64,000 nt of DNA from an uncultured Chitinophaga sp. (GCA_964641575.1 CAZXMP010000006.1:1627-65626); one strand, 5' to 3'. Numbered from the stretch's first letter, positions 12,629 to 19,492 are shown. The notes: generated from the sequence alone by a model not told the origin. Translations and numbers: made by a program.

Positions 12629-12659
12629 TTGCAGAAGTAAAAACACGGAGTTACTTTCG
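12629..12659 (+). promoter_or_regulatory. Predicted sigma-70-type promoter of the first T9SS cargo gene
   Basis: TTG(CA) -33 element and TACTTTCG -7 element; a similar layout occurs at about 15395-15425. Confidence 0.5.
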
Positions 12660-12716: not shown

Positions 12717-12814
12717 TATTCCTCGTTGAACCACTGAGTCTTACATCCTGTTGATACACCTTACTAAAAATCTATTCCTCTAGTTGAAACTCTGAGTCTC
12801 AAATCCTATTGATA
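12717..12814 (+). repeat. Two imperfect ~40-nt direct repeats in the predicted 5' leader
   Basis: 12717-12756 versus 12773-12814, 35 of 40 aligned positions identical by eye. Confidence 0.8.
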
Positions 12815-12882
12815 TGCCGTTCCAATTCTTCTAAAGCCCAACGGTTTAGGATTTACTATTTATAACATAAAAATCTCAGAGC

Positions 12883-15033
12883 ATGAAAAAATTTACTTAT
12901 TCTTTACTGATCGCTTTTGCAGCGATATTATTTTCGGGAACAGCCTTTGGCCAGATTACAACCGTTGGGACTGCAACAACTGCTTCCTCAACAACTGGTT
13001 CAATTACAATTAGCAAACCAACGGGCATACAAGTTGGTGATTTAATGATTGCATCCATTGTGGAAAGTGAAGCTTCTGGCGGAACTGACCTTGGTAGTTC
13101 AAATGGCTTAACTGGTTGGACTTTAATGAGCGAAGGAACATTAGCTGGAACCAATCCAGAATTTTATGGCTATGCGTTTTATAAAATTGCTGTTTTAGCA
13201 GATGTAACGACCAGTGATTATACTTTTGATCTGGATGGTTCTAATAATGCAGCGTCTGGAAGTATTATTGCTTTTAGGGGAGTTAATAACACTACTCCTT
13301 TTGACATAACACCAAGCGCCTCGCTTGCAGGCGTAAATACAGATAATAGTTTATCTCCTTCTGCAATTTCGCCGATATCGGCCAATACTGCTGTAGTAAT
13401 GCTTGGTTTTGTTGGTTTAAATACAGGATCCGCTAATATTTTTAGCGGTTGGAATACCACAAGTCCAGGTGCCTTAACTGAACTTGTTGACTTTGGTGCA
13501 ACCGCTACAAGAGGAAGAGGTGTAGGAGCTGCTTGGGCTACAAAAGCAAGTACCGGGACTACAGGTCCAACAGGTACAGCTACACTAGCTGGAAACTATG
13601 CTAATGGGTCTTTATTGATTGCTTTAAGACCCTTTATAGATCCTGTTCCAAATCCAAACTTATGGTCAGTATCAGGCACAGGTGATCTTAGAAAATATAC
13701 CATGGATCCAATAGCAGGTACTTTGTTAGCTGGTCCTGCAACGGTTGTTACTCCGTTAACTTCTACTGCCGCTGTAGCCAAAAATCAAATTACACCTAGT
13801 GATGTTAATGGTTGTATATACTATCTTGACAGAGACGATGATGACACAAAAAATGGTGTAGTTACTATTTATTCTTTACGTCCTGATGGTACCGGCCATG
13901 GTAGCAGAGGCACTATCGATATGAACGGTGCCGCAAATACTAGCGACTTTAGTTTTGTACGCCTTGGTTTTGATGCGTTGGGCAGAGGATGGATTTTAGC
14001 TGGTACTGGTGGCACTATCTACATTGCCTCATTCCAGGGTAATGGTGTAAATGCAATCAGCGGTGTAAATACTTTCGGAAATGCTACTTTAAATGTTGCA
14101 GCTCCCGGTCAGGCTACAGATTTCCAAAATGGTGATTTAGCTATTACTGCTAATGGTACCATGTACGCTGTTGCTAACGTAACAGATGGAGAAACTTATG
14201 TGTATGTATTGAACTCTCTTAACACCCCAACTACTCTTTCCCGCAAGTGGACAGTACAACAAGGTGGTAACACTTTCTCCGGTAGTGTAAATGGTTTAGC
14301 GTGGACACAATCAGGTTCATTGCATTTTTCTACCAGCACAGGTATATATTTTATCGACCAGTTTACTGCAAACACTGCTTCGGGTACAGTTCAGGCAACT
14401 TTAGTTGCTAACACAGGTGGCTTGTCATTAACTGACCTTGGCTCCGATAGATTCCCAACTCAAACAACTTTACCTGTTGACCTGATCAGCTTTGCCGGTG
14501 CATACAGCAACCAGAAAACAAACCTTAACTGGGTAACTGAAAACTTACAGGACTTTGATCGTTTTGAAGTTGAGCGCAGCACAGACGGAAATAATTATAT
14601 TACTGTAGGTACAAAAGCTCCGGTACAAACTGCAGCAAGAACTACTTACTTACATACAGATGATTTATCTGCTGTAAATGGTACTGTATTCTACTATCGT
14701 CTTAAAATGATAGACCTGAACGGACAGTTCAAATACAGCAATGTAATATTGGTACGTAAAGAAAGTAACGTAAAGGGTATCCGCATCAACCCGAACCCGG
14801 TTGTAACGGGTGGTGTTGCTACTTTACGTTTTGAAGCAAGTGCTAAAGGCGTTGTAGAATTCCGAATAGTTGATATGGCGGGTCGCATAGTGTTGAGGCA
14901 GCAGAATAATGTTGCAGAAGGTATCAACAGCGTTCCGGTTAACAGCCTTGATCGTTTGCAACCTGGTACATACATCTTGCAAATGAATGATGGTACGGCA
15001 ATACAATCAACCAAGTTCATCGTAGCACAATAA
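12883..15033 (+). CDS. T9SS type-A secreted protein (N-terminal beta-rich domain, propeller-like middle, sorting domain)
   Basis: Signal peptide; TLPVDLISF...FYYRLKMID...INPNPV...LQPGTYILQM C-terminus. Confidence 0.85.
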   Translation: MKKFTYSLLIAFAAILFSGTAFGQITTVGTATTASSTTGSITISKPTGIQVGDLMIASIVESEASGGTDLGSSNGLTGWTLMSEGTLAGTNPEFYGYAFYKIAVLADVTTSDYTFDLDGSNNAASGSIIAFRGVNNTTPFDITPSASLAGVNTDNSLSPSAISPISANTAVVMLGFVGLNTGSANIFSGWNTTSPGALTELVDFGATATRGRGVGAAWATKASTGTTGPTGTATLAGNYANGSLLIALRPFIDPVPNPNLWSVSGTGDLRKYTMDPIAGTLLAGPATVVTPLTSTAAVAKNQITPSDVNGCIYYLDRDDDDTKNGVVTIYSLRPDGTGHGSRGTIDMNGAANTSDFSFVRLGFDALGRGWILAGTGGTIYIASFQGNGVNAISGVNTFGNATLNVAAPGQATDFQNGDLAITANGTMYAVANVTDGETYVYVLNSLNTPTTLSRKWTVQQGGNTFSGSVNGLAWTQSGSLHFSTSTGIYFIDQFTANTASGTVQATLVANTGGLSLTDLGSDRFPTQTTLPVDLISFAGAYSNQKTNLNWVTENLQDFDRFEVERSTDGNNYITVGTKAPVQTAARTTYLHTDDLSAVNGTVFYYRLKMIDLNGQFKYSNVILVRKESNVKGIRINPNPVVTGGVATLRFEASAKGVVEFRIVDMAGRIVLRQQNNVAEGINSVPVNSLDRLQPGTYILQMNDGTAIQSTKFIVAQ

Positions 15034-15044
15034 TATTTCAATAT

Positions 15045-15076
15045 AAAAGGGATGGGTTTCTCCATCCCTTTTTTTC
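15045..15076 (+). terminator. Intrinsic terminator
   Basis: AAAAGGGATGG-gtttct-CCATCCCTTTT plus T run. Confidence 0.85.
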
Positions 15077-15166
15077 TTTTCATTTTTATTTATAGCACTG
15101 CCCTTAGGGGATAACCTTATCGAAGATTCAGTTATATATGGATAAATGAAAGACTGATAGATGATA

Positions 15167-15231
15167 CATGCTCAGGGTTTTTATACCTTGAACCCCTCTG
15201 GCCCATGCGGAGGGGTTTTTTTATTTACCCG
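15167..15231 (+). ncRNA. Candidate small RNA, copy 1 (seed plus intrinsic terminator); 5' end unknown
   Basis: 65-nt block nearly identical to 18001-18066. Ends in an AACCCCTC...GAGGGGTT hairpin plus T7. Lies between the upstream terminator and the downstream promoter. Confidence 0.5.
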
Positions 15232-15638
15232 TATAGCCATACCGGAGGCGTAGTTGCCTTAGCGAATTCGGATTTTCCGAAGCCTTAACAAAGTAGGTTT
15301 ACCCCATGAAACTTTAGCCAGAAGTTTTTTGTTCACCCTTTTATAGCGATTCAAAAAAAAGATTAAACTTTTTTTAAAAAATCGTAAATCTACCTTGCAG
15401 GTATTACGTTGGGTTTTTACTTTTACATCACTTCAGAATTCGTACCTATACAAGAGCCACATTTAATCAGCGTCCTTAGTACGCATCCACCCTTTCTACT
15501 GTAAAACCCCTTAAGAGTTTTTATTTTTTAATTACCCATATCGGGTCCAATCCTGCATAAAGCCAACGGTTTATTATCCATCCGCTAAAACCACCACGGT
15601 TACGGAGTTATTTATTTTTTAATTATAAACCATTGAGC

Positions 15639-17861
15639 ATGAAAAAAATTATTTATTTAAAAGGATTTCTTTCCTTACTATTTGCTATAATAGCAAATCT
15701 GTTGTTTTCGCAAACAATTACTTTTACTTCCCCTGTATCGGGTTCAACAACAAATGTTACTAACGGTAGCAATCTTTCTATAACAGCTGAAAGAACTACT
15801 GCGAGTTGGAACGGCGGAAACAGCAACTGGACTTTTAATTTTAATGTTGTTTCAGGACCAGTAGGTGGGGTAAGCCTTTCTCCTGATCCTATTTCAGGAA
15901 ATAATATTGAAGAAGCAACAACAACGGCTACTTTCTCAATTATTGGTACTTATGTTATAAGCTGTACGGTGAATGAAAATGGCGGTGGCGAGACCCATAC
16001 TACTAGCACAGGGAACAATATTACCATAAATGTGGTAGCACCTGTACCACTTACTCCTATCGGTTGTAACGGCCAGTTTTATGTTAGCTATGGGCCAACT
16101 TCTGGTGCAAACGGTAACACACTTCTGAATAAACTTACATTTGCTGGTAGCAATTTATCAGCATCTTCTTTCCCGGTTAATCCAGGAAGCATGGGCTTTA
16201 ATTCAATGGGCTTAAATCCAATTGACGGATATATTTACGCTGTACGCTATCCAGCTGGTGGAGGCAAATCCCGCTTAATAAGAATTGGCAATGGATTACC
16301 AAATCAGGTTGATTTGGGTGAAATAGCAGCACTCAACACAGGTGAGATTTCTTACTCAGGTTGTTTTGATGAAAACGGGGATTACTATTTTACTACAAAC
16401 TCAGGCACTGGTTCTGGAAGATTGATGAGAATAACAAATGCCAATCTTGCAGCAAGAACCGCTACACAGATTGCAGCCAGCGGTTTCACTAGTATATATG
16501 ATATCGCAATCAATCCTGTTAATGGACAGATGTATGCCACTAATTCAAGTACCGGTGCAAATTTCCTTGCTACTGTAAACAAAGCAACTGGCGCAATTAC
16601 GACCATAGCTGGTGGTAATGCAGGAGGTAATTTCTTTGCAGGCCTGTTCTTTGATGAAGTGGGCGAATTGTATGGTTACAGGGCGAACGGCTCCTTCTTC
16701 CAAATCAATAAAACCACAGCGGCTCTTTCTGCAGCAGGAAGTGGTGCCGCTTATTCCGGAGCCGATGGCTGTAGCTGTAGCTTTGGCCGTGTGTTTCATG
16801 ACCTGGATTTTACGCTGAATCCGAGCAACCAAATTTGTCCCAGCCAAATGAACCCTACATTCCCGTTCCCGCTAACTGTTTCTGTAACGAATGAATCAAG
16901 CAGTCAACAAACTGGTCTTACATATACCCTTGATATTTCCGACCCTGCTAAAAGACTTGTGTTTACAGAAAGCAGTGCTACCATAAAAGCAAATTTTATT
17001 ACAGCCGGACTTGCTACTGTTGCCTCAACAGTAACACTTTCATCGGCCACCCCTGGCGATCCAATCAATAAATTGGTTATTACAGGTTTTCAAACTGGTG
17101 GAGCTGATGCAACTTTAAGCGCCGTATTACAGGTAGCTGTAGCAACATTGGGAGGCACCTATCTTCCTGTTCCTATTCAATCTGAAATTACCGGGCTAGA
17201 TCCTGTGTTTGGTGGTAACGATTTATCGAACGACCCGACTTCCATTCCTCCGGATGATGCTACGGTAATTACTTTCTGCCCGAACATTACACTTCCGGTA
17301 ACCTTGTTAAGTTTTGGTGGCAACTTAAATAACAATACTGCACAACTTGATTGGAGCGCAGAAAATCAAATCAATTTCTCGTTCTATTCAATTGAGCGTA
17401 GCATAAACGGTGTTGACTTTAAAAATGTAGGTACACAAGCCGGTCTGGGTACCAATACAAGCAGAGAGCAATACCAATTTACTGAAGACCTTTCTGCGGA
17501 ACATTCTAATATATTCCTCTATCGCCTTAAAATGGTTGATGTAGATGGTACTTTCAAATACAGCAATGTAATTGTACTCAAGAGGGATGAAGGTGCTACA
17601 CCGGGTATCAGAATTAACCCGAACCCATTAGTAAGAGGTGGCCAGGTTTCAGTTGTATTTAATTCTCCAAAAAAGAATACGGTTGACTTTAAAGTAATTG
17701 ATATGTCTGGTCGCATAGTAGCAACGCAGCGCAGTAATGTAGCTGAAGGAGCTAACAGTGTTGCTATCACCAGTCTTGATAAACTACAACCGGGCACTTA
17801 CGTATTGCAAATGAACGATGGTATTGCAATACAAACAGCTAAGTTCGTAGTAGCTAAATAA
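15639..17861 (+). CDS. T9SS type-A secreted protein (Ig-like plus propeller-like domains), paralogous C-terminus to 12883-15033
   Basis: Start ATG 15639; signal peptide; TLPVTLLSF...FLYRLKMVD...INPNPL...LQPGTYVLQM. Confidence 0.85.
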   Translation: MKKIIYLKGFLSLLFAIIANLLFSQTITFTSPVSGSTTNVTNGSNLSITAERTTASWNGGNSNWTFNFNVVSGPVGGVSLSPDPISGNNIEEATTTATFSIIGTYVISCTVNENGGGETHTTSTGNNITINVVAPVPLTPIGCNGQFYVSYGPTSGANGNTLLNKLTFAGSNLSASSFPVNPGSMGFNSMGLNPIDGYIYAVRYPAGGGKSRLIRIGNGLPNQVDLGEIAALNTGEISYSGCFDENGDYYFTTNSGTGSGRLMRITNANLAARTATQIAASGFTSIYDIAINPVNGQMYATNSSTGANFLATVNKATGAITTIAGGNAGGNFFAGLFFDEVGELYGYRANGSFFQINKTTAALSAAGSGAAYSGADGCSCSFGRVFHDLDFTLNPSNQICPSQMNPTFPFPLTVSVTNESSSQQTGLTYTLDISDPAKRLVFTESSATIKANFITAGLATVASTVTLSSATPGDPINKLVITGFQTGGADATLSAVLQVAVATLGGTYLPVPIQSEITGLDPVFGGNDLSNDPTSIPPDDATVITFCPNITLPVTLLSFGGNLNNNTAQLDWSAENQINFSFYSIERSINGVDFKNVGTQAGLGTNTSREQYQFTEDLSAEHSNIFLYRLKMVDVDGTFKYSNVIVLKRDEGATPGIRINPNPLVRGGQVSVVFNSPKKNTVDFKVIDMSGRIVATQRSNVAEGANSVAITSLDKLQPGTYVLQMNDGIAIQTAKFVVAK

Positions 17862-17885
17862 TACTTTTTTAAAATACACTAATAT

Positions 17886-17914
17886 GGGGATGGCCTTGTG
17901 TCATCCCCTCTTTT
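17886..17914 (+). terminator. Intrinsic terminator
   Basis: GGGGATGG-ccttgtg-TCATCCCC followed by TCTTTT. Confidence 0.7.
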
Positions 17915-18000
17915 CCAGCCTCAACATAGTACCCTGTTCTTATAATAAAGTAGGGAGTTGCTAACAGACGAATAATATTATGATTAGTAAATCAGACGAT

Positions 18001-18066
18001 CATGCTCAGGGTTTTTAGACCTTGAACCCCTCTGGCCCATGCGGAGGGGTTTTTTTTATTTACCCG
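18001..18066 (+). ncRNA. Candidate small RNA, copy 2
   Basis: Differs from 15167-15231 by one substitution and one extra T. Confidence 0.5.
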
Positions 18067-18232
18067 CCCAAGCCTTACCGAAGCCAAATTACCCAAAACC
18101 CCTACGAGGGCAACTTATCCTCCGGGCTCCAACGGCTAGTTTCACCCACCAAAACCACCCATAAAAATTTCTTTTTGCAGCCGCCAAATAGTTGTAATTT
18201 AATTGTTGCTTAATAATCTAAAACCTTAGTAT

Positions 18233-19492
18233 ATGAGAAAAAGTTTACCTATTCTATCTCTCCTTTCTGCCACTTTATTAGCTTCTTCTTCTATCAACGC
18301 TCAGCAAACTGATCGTTTTGCTTATGCTGTTACGGATATGCAACAGCAGGGTGGCAACTGGAGTTTTTTACGAAAATTAAATCTGCAAACCGGCGAGTAT
18401 AGCCCTGTATTACTAAATGGTAACGATGCTTCACTGCTGGCCTATAATGCATCCACCAAAAAACAATTAACTGCCCCGGTTACGGATGCCATTTATGGTA
18501 GTGCCGCTAATGCTGCTTTTGGTACTGGTGTTGCCGCCATGGCATATGATAAGAAAAATAACCGTCTTTACTATACCCCCATGCTGGTAGACCAGTTACG
18601 TTACCTGGATCTAAAAACAATGAAGGTGTTTTATGTAACCGATCGTTCTTTTACCGGCAAGCCACAAAAATCTCCCGACCAGGGAAATATTGTCACCCGC
18701 ATGGTAATAGCATCTGATGGTAATGGTTATGCTATGACGAATGACGGAAGACAACTCATTCGTTTTACTACCGGAAAGAAAATGGAAATAACTGACCTTG
18801 GTTCGTTGGTGGATGATCCTGCTAACTCAGCTTCCATTCATAGTTCCTGCAGCAGCTTTGGTGGAGATATGATTGCTGATGATAATGGCAATCTCTTTGT
18901 TTTATCTGCCCGTAACCAGGTGTTCCAGGTAAATATTGAAACTAAAGTAGCAACTCATCTTGGTACTATAAAAGGATTACCTGCTAATTTTACTACCAAT
19001 GGTGCAGCAGTTAATGATGATAACAAAATCATTATTGGCTCTGCTACTCAATCGGCTTCTTACTTTGCGTTTGATTATAAAACATTAGAAGCTGTTCCTT
19101 ATCAAATAGCAGGTACTGTTTGGCAAAGTTCAGATTTAGCGAATAGTAATTTACTAATAACAAGCAGTAAAAAACCAGTTTCAGATCTAGCAATTACAGA
19201 TTTAAAAATGGCGGATGCAATTGTTGCGGATGGTAAAGTAAGCATCTTCCCTAACCCGGTTACCGATAACCAGTTTACTGTTCGTTTCAACAAATTGGAA
19301 GCAGGTAATTATATGTTACAAGTAACCGATGTAACAGGCCGCCAGGTATTACAACAAAGTATTAGCATTAATGGTGATAACCAGGCTCAGCGTATCAACC
19401 TTTCTGCTGCTACTTCAAAAGGAGTTTATTTAGTAAAGATTGCAGATGCACAAAGTAAAATAGTGTTTAACACAAAGATTGTTGTACAATAA
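18233..19492 (+). CDS. T9SS type-A secreted beta-propeller-like protein
   Basis: Signal peptide; repeated blade-like segments (GGDMIADDNGNLFV); IFPNPV...AGNYMLQV...GVYLVKI sorting domain. Confidence 0.85.
   Translation: MRKSLPILSLLSATLLASSSINAQQTDRFAYAVTDMQQQGGNWSFLRKLNLQTGEYSPVLLNGNDASLLAYNASTKKQLTAPVTDAIYGSAANAAFGTGVAAMAYDKKNNRLYYTPMLVDQLRYLDLKTMKVFYVTDRSFTGKPQKSPDQGNIVTRMVIASDGNGYAMTNDGRQLIRFTTGKKMEITDLGSLVDDPANSASIHSSCSSFGGDMIADDNGNLFVLSARNQVFQVNIETKVATHLGTIKGLPANFTTNGAAVNDDNKIIIGSATQSASYFAFDYKTLEAVPYQIAGTVWQSSDLANSNLLITSSKKPVSDLAITDLKMADAIVADGKVSIFPNPVTDNQFTVRFNKLEAGNYMLQVTDVTGRQVLQQSISINGDNQAQRINLSAATSKGVYLVKIADAQSKIVFNTKIVVQ

Follow-up and report, generated by a model that had tools for sequence, protein, structure and literature searches.

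Enterobacterial sRNAs derived from 3' UTRs, of the CpxQ and SroC type, target other genes and need Hfq and RNase E, and the invertons and shufflons of Bacteroidales rely on short inverted repeats flanking a DNA segment that affects surface-protein expression. In Staphylococcus aureus, a motif in the 3' UTR of icaR is complementary to the translation initiation region of the same mRNA, and the duplex is proposed to prevent initiation and to serve as a substrate for a double-strand RNase (PMC3868564). In hbs of B. subtilis, pairing between the 5' and 3' UTRs stabilises the mRNA and leaves the start codon uncovered (PMC5737220), while GibS of Bacteroides (PMC7366714) and Rfp18 of Flavobacterium, which affects secreted proteases and an adhesin (PMC9723704), are sRNAs that pair at initiation regions.

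The window analysed here, 64,000 nt of DNA from an uncultured Chitinophaga sp., carries a 3'-end module complementary to the starts of T9SS cargo genes, which most likely represents an undescribed form of RNA–RNA translation control in bacteria without Shine–Dalgarno (SD) sequences. By analogy, it is best read as resembling icaR, a 3'-UTR-derived sRNA, or both. As in icaR, a 3' motif of the Chitinophagaceae element is complementary to the initiation region of what would be the same mRNA; however, in icaR the pairing motif is an anti-SD UCCCCUG within a long 3' UTR, whereas here the start codon and an A-rich upstream tract are matched in an SD-less phylum, the seed stands directly before the terminator, some leaders carry three sites, and the arrangement is family-wide and found on several paralogs. 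With the CpxQ and SroC type it shares a seed just upstream of its own terminator that is more conserved than its targets, as well as unlinked candidate targets of the same functional class, but its best predicted target is the putative parent mRNA itself; unlike icaR and these sRNAs, it is known from sequence alone. Long-range pairing of both ends of one mRNA recalls hbs, although here it is predicted over the start codon. GibS and Rfp18 are stand-alone sRNA genes, whereas the present module is a probable 3'-UTR part tied to its target gene and has no sequence or structural relation to them: no Rfam family matched the 64-kb window at its gathering threshold, and the best sub-threshold match, anti-hemB, scored 19.8 bits (E = 0.35), well short of its 49.5-bit cut-off.

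All features described here lie on the plus strand. Gene 1 (12883..15033) encodes a T9SS cargo protein of 716 aa with a Por_Secre_tail domain (Pfam PF18962, E = 5.8e-8) and gene 2 (15639..17861) one of 740 aa with DUF6923 and Por_Secre_tail domains (Pfam), their homology being confined to the C-terminal 195 aa (52% identity). Read from the sequence, gene 1 starts with AAAATCTCAGAGCATG at 12870-12885 (ATG at 12883), gene 2 with AAACCATTGAGCATG at 15627-15641 (ATG at 15639) and gene 3 with AAAACCTTAGTATATG at 18220-18235 (ATG at 18233); ORF calling placed the start of gene 2 at a TTG at 15633, and the conserved MKK start is the ATG at 15639. The seed, CATGCTCAGGGTTTT, occurs at 15167-15181 and 18001-18015, with no other exact copy in the window or the genome, and genes 1 and 2 are bracketed by GAGCATG...CATGCTC just as the earlier note on this DNA had stated. 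The pairing it had proposed between the seed and the starts of these two genes was reproduced by RNAduplex, at -18.5 kcal/mol for the gene 1 site (CAUAAAAAUCUCAGAGCAUGA, 12866..12886), whose motif is kept in all units, and at -18.8 kcal/mol for the gene 2 site (UUAUAAACCAUUGAGCAUGA, 15623..15642), where the duplex has 7+1 Watson–Crick pairs, a G-U pair, a 1-nt bulge and 5 further pairs. Neither value was reached when seed or start region was shuffled with dinucleotides preserved (z = -4.9 to -7.2, 0/1000). For gene 3 (18220..18235) weak complementarity was indeed present (-11 to -13 kcal/mol; z = -2.2 to -3.2, 7-30/1000 shuffles) but its conservation was not, with site energies of -2.9 to -15.7 kcal/mol over 16 loci, and this start is probably not a genuine site.

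The seed opens an element of a repeat family, present as copy 1 at 15167..15231 (CM R1 92.6 bits) and copy 2, 98% identical, at 18001..18066 (CM R1 90.3 bits). Copy 1 begins with a single-stranded toehold, CAUGC (15167-15171), followed by hairpin H1 (15172-15191), whose 5' arm belongs to the seed, and by a terminator hairpin (15192-15216) with its U-run, exactly where conservation in close relatives ends. Every copy folds as H1 plus terminator with the 5' toehold single-stranded, and UGCUCAG(G/A)GUUU within the seed is invariant in 16 copies. Both helices covary: in the CM alignment of 44 copies, pairing holds for 96.3% of cells and double-sided changes occur in 12 of 16 pairs, a result that none of 500 shuffles matched, with at most 65% pairing in slid controls. 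These comparisons show the RNA structure of the element.

Applying the Bacteroidota promoter consensus (PMC9723704), we predict a promoter for gene 1 at 12629..12659 (TTGCAG, 20 nt, TACTTTCG), from which a 5' leader of ~218 nt follows; related loci have the same TTGCA-N-TAnnTTTG arrangement, ~220-250 nt before the ATG of the cargo gene. The predicted promoter of gene 2 (15395..15425; TTGCAG, 20 nt, TACTTTTA) lies downstream of element copy 1 in a block conserved in two related loci (L030 and L031). The leaders contain 10.6% and 12.6% G, compared to 21% in the coding sequence, and being G-poor they should be open for pairing. That of gene 1 holds accessory seed-complementary sites (12727..12798), namely UGAACCACUGAGUC at 12727-12740 and UGAAACUCUGAGUC at 12785-12798, with RNAduplex energies of -14.3 and -16.0 kcal/mol. 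Extra leader sites occur in only 12 of the 36 units surveyed; in some lineages their pairing with the seed is stronger than that of the start site, and the main target there could differ. In a terminator scan, gene 1 showed a first intrinsic terminator, T1, ahead of the element (15045..15072), and there was a first terminator-like hairpin, also T1, after gene 2 (17886..17908). The former is lineage-specific, being conserved in L030 and L031 and missing from most other genera, in which the element directly follows the stop. With T1 between stop and element in the window lineage, the element would need read-through or a promoter of its own.

The deciding argument comes from comparison. All 36 non-redundant units, drawn from at least 8 genera of Chitinophagaceae, combine a T9SS cargo start of the form AUAAAAC(C/U)-bulge-GAGCAUGAAA with a 3' end in which a near-invariant AUGCUCAGGGUUUU is followed by a small hairpin and then by an intrinsic terminator, and their start-site duplexes are predicted at -10.8 to -22.8 kcal/mol; the units are homologous and hence do not give phylogenetically independent statistics. 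Every bona fide element seen follows a T9SS-CTD gene starting AUAAAAC..GAGCAUGAA, which holds for 16 element copies in 14 genomes of the genus, 19 loci anchored on gene 3 and 12 elements in other genera, and no orphan elements lacking a cargo gene turned up. In logos and alignments, the start motif and the seed stand out as near-invariant islands within diverged flanks. Because in most genomes the seed lies 0-27 nt past the stop, at times overlapping it, and the element supplies the only terminator of the cargo gene, the element would primarily be the 3' UTR of its target mRNA. The start motif is retained after loss of the 3' seed at L046, L090, C13:2344 and C113, and in genomes with two units own pairing (-16.9 kcal/mol) equals cross pairing (-17.2 kcal/mol), so that these energies do not single out action in cis. 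Complementarity, its position and its family-wide conservation are established by these comparisons.

Genome-wide, genes 1 and 2 rank third and fourth for seed pairing among 3935 crude ORF starts, and the five best matches, including the unlinked C13:2344 and C113:9929, are all T9SS-CTD cargo genes; likewise, 4 of the 7 starts with GAGCATG belong to T9SS genes (Fisher p = 5e-7). The count suggested in the earlier note thus bears out an enrichment of T9SS cargo among seed-matching starts. Orthologs of C13:2344 conserve no more than AACCCU, the full match being limited to the gene itself, in G000, and its G024 and G025 orthologs. In the genome of the window, a third, unlinked cargo gene (C40:10257) combines a matching start with a diverged 3' seed of its own. 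Energies of -18 kcal/mol or better were found in 745 of ~1.7 million genome windows, or ~1 duplex per 20 kb, and an accessibility-aware cofold of the whole element places genes 1 and 2 only within the top ~1% of start regions, with a net gain of -10 to -12.6 kcal/mol (-11.2 to -12.6 for gene 2) after paying for the opening of H1. Since such energies are common in the genome and the cofold is no more selective than this, thermodynamics alone is insufficient for the claim, and the deciding evidence is the position at the start codon together with conservation, not energy.

Ribosomes of Bacteroidota do not use Shine–Dalgarno pairing and require an unstructured, A-rich initiation region. Judging from the sequence patterns, we consider it rather probable that the 65-nt 3'-terminal module pairs with the initiation region of its own and of paralogous cargo mRNAs and blocks initiation. 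As part of the cargo mRNA, the module would consist of a 5-7 nt toehold, (N)AUGCUC, a weak H1 whose 5' arm, CAGGGUU, extends the seed, and the intrinsic terminator. The toehold would pair with GAGCAU(G) at the start codon, upon which H1 would open and GGGUUUUU would pair with AAAAC(C/U)(C/U) at -9 to -17. The resulting duplex would cover positions -17 to +3, and it should block initiation because the SD-less ribosome depends on an unstructured A-rich region; it may also form a substrate for a double-strand RNase. We infer that seed and start region are parts of one transcript, that they would form the duplex in vivo with a repressive effect, and that they may act in cis or in trans: as the seed is identical in all copies, it could act on its own transcript, through intramolecular closure of the 5' and 3' UTRs, and on paralogs, where after 3' processing or read-through it would reach other cargo mRNAs sharing the start motif.

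One alternative, already raised in the earlier note, is that the repeats are DNA sites at which a site-specific recombinase would invert or excise each gene. The bracketing of the genes would suit such sites, as would the variable presence of a cargo unit between a paaY-like gene and gene 3, but all units are co-oriented, and the note's own observation that the window holds no recombinase extends to the whole 66.5-kb contig in searches with the tyrosine (PF00589; 13 matches in the genome, 0 on this contig, C6) and serine (PF00239; one match, on C291) profiles. Moreover, the junction GAGCATGCTCAGGG of an empty site or circle is absent from the genome and from 1.1 Mb of related loci, and cargo-less loci carry no scar. 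In contrast to invertons and shufflons, the repeats have no nearby recombinase, alternative orientation or fixed geometry, and they include a start codon and the arm of an RNA hairpin. With as many as three direct copies per leader and one inverted copy after the gene, the motif might instead be a double-stranded operator recognised by a transcription factor or the target of an RNA-guided DNA-binding protein, and RNA-guided transcription factors exist in Bacteroidota (PMC13472631). The guide RNAs of dCas12f-sigmaE and TldR, which we considered on account of that work, have a long scaffold plus guide and are effector-linked, whereas an element of ~55-65 nt with a 5' seed and two small hairpins does not come near the length of a Cas12f/TnpB-type scaffold. 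Both DNA-level readings also conflict with the pairing itself: the half-sites are split by a bulge of variable length (1-7 nt), the mismatches between seed and start lean to G-U on the mRNA strand, and the seed lies within a covarying RNA hairpin beside a terminator. Sense duplexes average -16.7 kcal/mol compared to -14.8 for antisense; sense is favoured in 21 units and antisense in 3, with 3 ties (Wilcoxon p = 1.4e-4, inflated by the G/U-rich seed), so that a bias towards RNA-type pairing is shown. In L093 a change in the seed (UUGCUCAAGG) is compensated in the start (CUUUGAGCAAUG), and in copy 1 of G031 a G to A change in the seed turns G-U into A-U in H1 and against the target alike. On such comparative grounds, hairpin covariation, G-U bias, variable bulge and the L093 compensation point to RNA, not DNA; we regard an operator as very improbable and recombination sites as the least credible explanation of all.

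If the pairing is between RNAs, the element might still be an sRNA gene in its own right, transcribed from its own promoter and acting purely in trans on a regulon of T9SS cargo. This would accord with T1 separating each gene from its element in the window lineage, with the 30 nt upstream of the seed being invariant in close relatives, with a seed that is invariant across genera while its targets vary, as is typical of a multi-target seed, and with the unlinked cargo genes that have matching starts. However, no TAnnTTTG-type promoter is conserved before the element, either between the two window copies or in L030, the short distance from the stop leaves no room for one in most genera, and no element was found apart from a cargo gene. 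Of the sRNA model in the earlier note, seed-to-start pairing on a T9SS cargo family is strongly supported (36/36 units, enrichment, G-U bias, L093), whereas its trans-acting part is not, the element probably being the target's own 3' UTR in most genomes; a strictly trans-acting gene appears unlikely. The same pairing could also be protective or activating, with bridging of the ends shielding the long leader or the 3' end from RNases, or with strong leader sites serving as decoys so that the start codon stays free. There is precedent in hbs (PMC5737220), and in G019, G024, G011 and L061 seed pairing amounts to -19 to -25 kcal/mol at leader sites near -80 and -150, compared to -10.8 to -16.7 for the start site; yet it is the start-codon site that is universal, extra leader sites being confined to a third of the units (12/36), and SD-less initiation should be inhibited once -17 to +3 is covered. 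We consider a protective role improbable too, if slightly less so than the strictly trans-acting gene.

Repression by the 3' module accordingly remains our preferred reading. More tentatively, and with considerable doubt, T9SS cargo genes of this family may sit within a portable expression cassette that is complete in itself. Each finished transcript would close on itself and limit its own translation, and its 3' end would cross-talk with paralogous cargo mRNAs; we know of no description of such autoregulation for any secretion-system substrate. This cassette would comprise a long G-poor leader with 1-3 anti-seed sites, of which the last covers the start codon, a signal peptide, the C-terminal sorting domain and, finally, the 3' seed and terminator. 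If true, cargo synthesis would be matched to secretion capacity in a phylum that initiates translation without Shine–Dalgarno pairing.

Genes 1 (12883-15033), 2 (15639-17861) and 3 (18233-19492) of the window are co-directional, each carries a T9SS C-terminal sorting domain, and the group is flanked by a hexapeptide-repeat (paaY-like) gene on one side and by obg on the other. The 65-nt element, consisting of a seed, a hairpin (H1) and an intrinsic terminator (T2), lies 3' of gene 1 (15167-15231) and 3' of gene 2 (18001-18066). Its copies match at 98% identity, the intergenic DNA around them being poorly alignable; the proteins of genes 1 and 2 resemble each other in the last 195 residues only (52% identity). 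A terminator-like hairpin (T1) directly follows the stop codon of both gene 1 (15045-15072) and gene 2 (17886-17908), and T2 is therefore the second of tandem terminators. In most genera the seed starts 0-27 nt past the stop, sometimes overlapping it, and T2 is the sole terminator; in the lineage of the window approximately 130 nt including T1 are inserted between stop and element, an insertion otherwise limited to a few loci (L018, L030-L033, L038 copy 1, L081 and L108). T1 could determine the share of transcripts that carry the seed.

The earlier note had the seed pairing with the start regions of all three genes, and both seeds and the three start regions are indeed in place. RNAduplex reproduced the pairings for gene 1 (-18.5 kcal/mol) and gene 2 (-18.8 kcal/mol), which cover positions -17 to +3 and exceed dinucleotide shuffles of either partner (z -4.9 to -7.2, 0/1000). 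The pairing with gene 3 is marginal by the same comparison (z -2.2 to -3.2) and not conserved; the observation thus stands confirmed for the first two genes, and gene 3 is rejected as a target. Once the cost of opening the element's small hairpin is deducted, the gain that remains is -10 to -12.6 kcal/mol with genes 1 and 2, compared with -4 to -6 kcal/mol with gene 3. Energy alone is unremarkable, as 745 of the genome's roughly 1.7 million windows reach -18 kcal/mol or better, and cofolding of the whole element with 3850 start regions places genes 1 and 2 only within the top ~1%. Since neither measure is sufficiently specific, the case rests on comparison. What is remarkable about the pairing is its location at cargo starts: when 3935 crude ORF starts are ranked by their match to the seed, the top five all belong to Pfam-confirmed T9SS cargo genes, and GAGCATG starts are found in just seven ORFs, four of them among the 45 T9SS ORFs of the genome (Fisher p = 5e-7).

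Within its own 4.2-Mb assembly the element is present only twice, as the copies of genes 1 and 2, and no Rfam family matches it. A dispersed repeat or MITE was ruled out, the genome holding these two strong copies and one diverged copy. Of 37 genomes from the genus, 14 gave a BLAST match to the element, every time at the same syntenic position. Of 68 family loci obtained by anchoring on gene 3, 19 have the exact seed upstream of it; in most of the rest the paaY-like gene and gene 3 have no cargo gene between them. The exact 14-mer gave 64 matches over 401 family genomes (57 genomes positive) compared to 3 for the reversed control, a count that overstates the prevalence of the element because 29 of the 41 matches inspected fall inside conserved coding genes, the remaining 12 being real elements. 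The real elements represent at least eight genera, and every one sits 3' of a T9SS-CTD gene starting (A/C)AUAAAAC(C/U)-[1-7 nt]-GAGCAUGAAA. A start-site duplex (-10.8 to -22.8 kcal/mol) forms in 36/36 non-redundant units of cargo gene and element, although all units are homologous and such counts are non-independent events. Information profiles reveal two sharply conserved islands amid variable flanks, namely positions -13 to -8 plus -4 to +3 at the start and AUGCUCAGGGUUUU in the element. In the two closest relatives, conservation extends from the stop of gene 1 across the element, ends exactly at the U-run, as expected of a transcript end, and restarts at the predicted promoter of gene 2.

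The loci also differ in content. Across Chitinophagaceae (loci L039-L097), the interval from the paaY-like gene to gene 3 contains the unit zero times, once or twice, with unrelated passenger domains (483-860 aa). The passenger varies, and the leader/signal-peptide and CTD/3'-element ends behave like a constant frame on either side of it. A seed-only copy, ATGCTCAGGGTTTA, lies just past the terminator of gene 3 in one genome (L021:6488), without H1 or a terminator of its own, and may be a remnant. Close relatives differ by GC-rich repeated-block insertions (TTTACCCGCCGTAGCC...GGAGGAGGG) right after the U-run (L030:3108-3170 versus window 15224-15260), an indel hotspot coinciding with the presumed transcript end.

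Several features distinguish an RNA-level from a DNA-level function. All copies fold into a single-stranded tail N-AUGCU(C) followed by H1 and the terminator. A covariance model built from element copies was used for searching and re-aligning genuine sequences only, a single inserted A having been removed from one row (L032) of its seed alignment to keep this gap-free. In 44 copies aligned with it, 96.3% of cells pair and both-sided changes occur in 12 of 16 pairs, far above shuffles and slid registers, bearing in mind that the alignment was made to fit the model. H1 has an unchanging 5' arm, CAGGGUU, and a 3' arm that alternates between CCUUG, AACUCU and AAUCCU, which points to the target as an additional constraint on the 5' arm. 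In one locus (L093) the seed has become UUGCUCAAGG and the start CUUUGAGCAAUG, which restores 13 contiguous pairs, and in copy 1 of G031 a G-to-A change strengthens both H1 and the target pairing. The earlier note had alternatively read the complementary sequences as DNA recombination sites that would make each gene excisable or invertible. Departures from a perfect inverted repeat are preferentially G-U on the mRNA strand, and the sense duplex is better than the antisense in 21 of 27 units, worse in 3 and tied in 3 (mean 1.8 kcal/mol, p = 1.4e-4), a test that is qualified by the units being related and the seed being rich in G and U. The target consists of two helices with a variable-length bulge between them, a geometry not easily explained by a recombinase or operator site. 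Orientation is identical in all units, the 66.5-kb contig encodes no tyrosine or serine recombinase, the GAGCATGCTCAGGG junction is absent from the own genome and from 1.1 Mb of related loci, and no scar was found in cargo-less loci; the recombination reading is thus not supported. An integron attC-like site was likewise ruled out on sequence, as the element lacks internal R/L box symmetry and, in a circular form, would be kept apart from the start motif by the 220-nt leader. On another contig of the genome, an Xer-like tyrosine recombinase (300 aa) adjoins two small T9SS-CTD genes (C166:1774-3801); no relation to the element was seen.

The RNA-level reading leaves a choice between action in cis and in trans. 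In one of the two models of the earlier note the element was a trans-acting sRNA masking cargo starts; the pairing at the core of this model is well supported by conservation, whereas the 3'-UTR position makes a free sRNA the less likely form. No conserved TAnnTTTG box marks a promoter of the element's own. The element is usually inseparable from the 3' end of the cargo gene, and none was found without a cargo gene bearing the start motif, both of which argue for self-targeting. Trans capacity is suggested by a seed that is essentially invariant across genera while targets vary, and by two-unit genomes, in which own (-16.9 kcal/mol) and cross (-17.2 kcal/mol) pairing are equal and cis-specific covariation is thus not seen. 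Further, the unlinked cargo genes C13:2344 and C113:9929 have matching starts without a 3' seed, and orthologs of the former in G024 and G025 have independently acquired AACCCUGAGCAAUG (-20 kcal/mol).

Unlinked T9SS cargo genes also carry related or distinct motifs. A third one in the own genome (C40:10257-11290, 316 aa), which likewise speaks for trans capacity, has the matching start motif CUAAAACCUUGAAGCAUG and, directly past its stop, a diverged seed/element, UAUGCUCAGGGGUUUU, followed by a different hairpin and a different terminator. The family of C13:2344-3651 and its orthologs L147-L165 shows conservation of a 5' motif, GAACCCUAAAG, of the 3' UTR sequence AUAGGGGUUCC that precedes the terminator, and then of a TTTGGTTTATAATATAAACTACTTTATGTTTG block. 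A second complementary pair in this family (5' GAACCCUA, 3' UAGGGGUUC) was dropped, not being above shuffles (z +1 to -2).

Using the published Bacteroidota promoter consensus (PMC9723704), a promoter TTGCAG-N20-TAnnTTnG is predicted ~220-250 nt upstream of each cargo ATG, and the leader would thus be about ten times the flavobacterial median length reported. The leaders are G-poor (10.6% and 12.6% G, compared to 21% in CDS). One or two extra seed-complementary sites near -80 and -150 are present in the leaders of 12 of 36 units (12727-12740 and 12785-12798 for gene 1); in some lineages these sites (-19 to -25 kcal/mol) exceed the start site in strength. Each accessory site of gene 1 is followed by a second motif, AUCCUGUUGAUA / AUCCUAUUGAUA (12745-12756 and 12803-12814), without complementarity to the element; related AACAUCCUGCUGAUA blocks are found in leaders of same-genus genomes (L021, L023 and L027).

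We propose that the element acts as a 3' module of the cargo mRNA, whose single-stranded toehold would pair with GAGCAU(G) at the start; strand invasion would then open H1 and extend pairing into the A-rich tract, hiding positions -17 to +3. Such a duplex should repress initiation in a Shine-Dalgarno-less system reliant on an open, A-rich initiation region (PMC7797042, PMC9723704); double-strand cleavage may follow as well, as icaR (PMC3868564) would suggest by analogy. In B. subtilis, ribosome binding sites have recently been shown to be occluded effectively by long-range intramolecular pairing at distances of hundreds of nucleotides (PMC12697547). That the effect is repression as against stabilisation is our inference.

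The putative regulator is most aptly viewed as a module in the 3' UTR of its target genes, and the element is, as judged by comparative sequence analysis, a new family-wide candidate RNA motif that can be likened to known 5'-3' UTR or 3'-UTR-sRNA regulators, from which it differs in that the target is a start codon in a phylum without Shine-Dalgarno sequences, and in its multi-site leaders and association with T9SS cargo. To our knowledge, post-transcriptional control in Bacteroidota beyond Bacteroides is almost unexplored, it is not known how T9SS cargo output is set, and only isolated single-gene cases of 5'-3' UTR communication (icaR, hbs) have been documented in bacteria. As the motif is precisely defined and its obvious target is conserved alongside, a few compensatory-mutation reporters could test its function, opening to experiment both the masking of a start codon by the 3' end of the same gene in Shine-Dalgarno-less translation and the tuning of secretion substrates. 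With the element, bacterial 5'-3' UTR communication would gain an example that is conserved and spans several genes.
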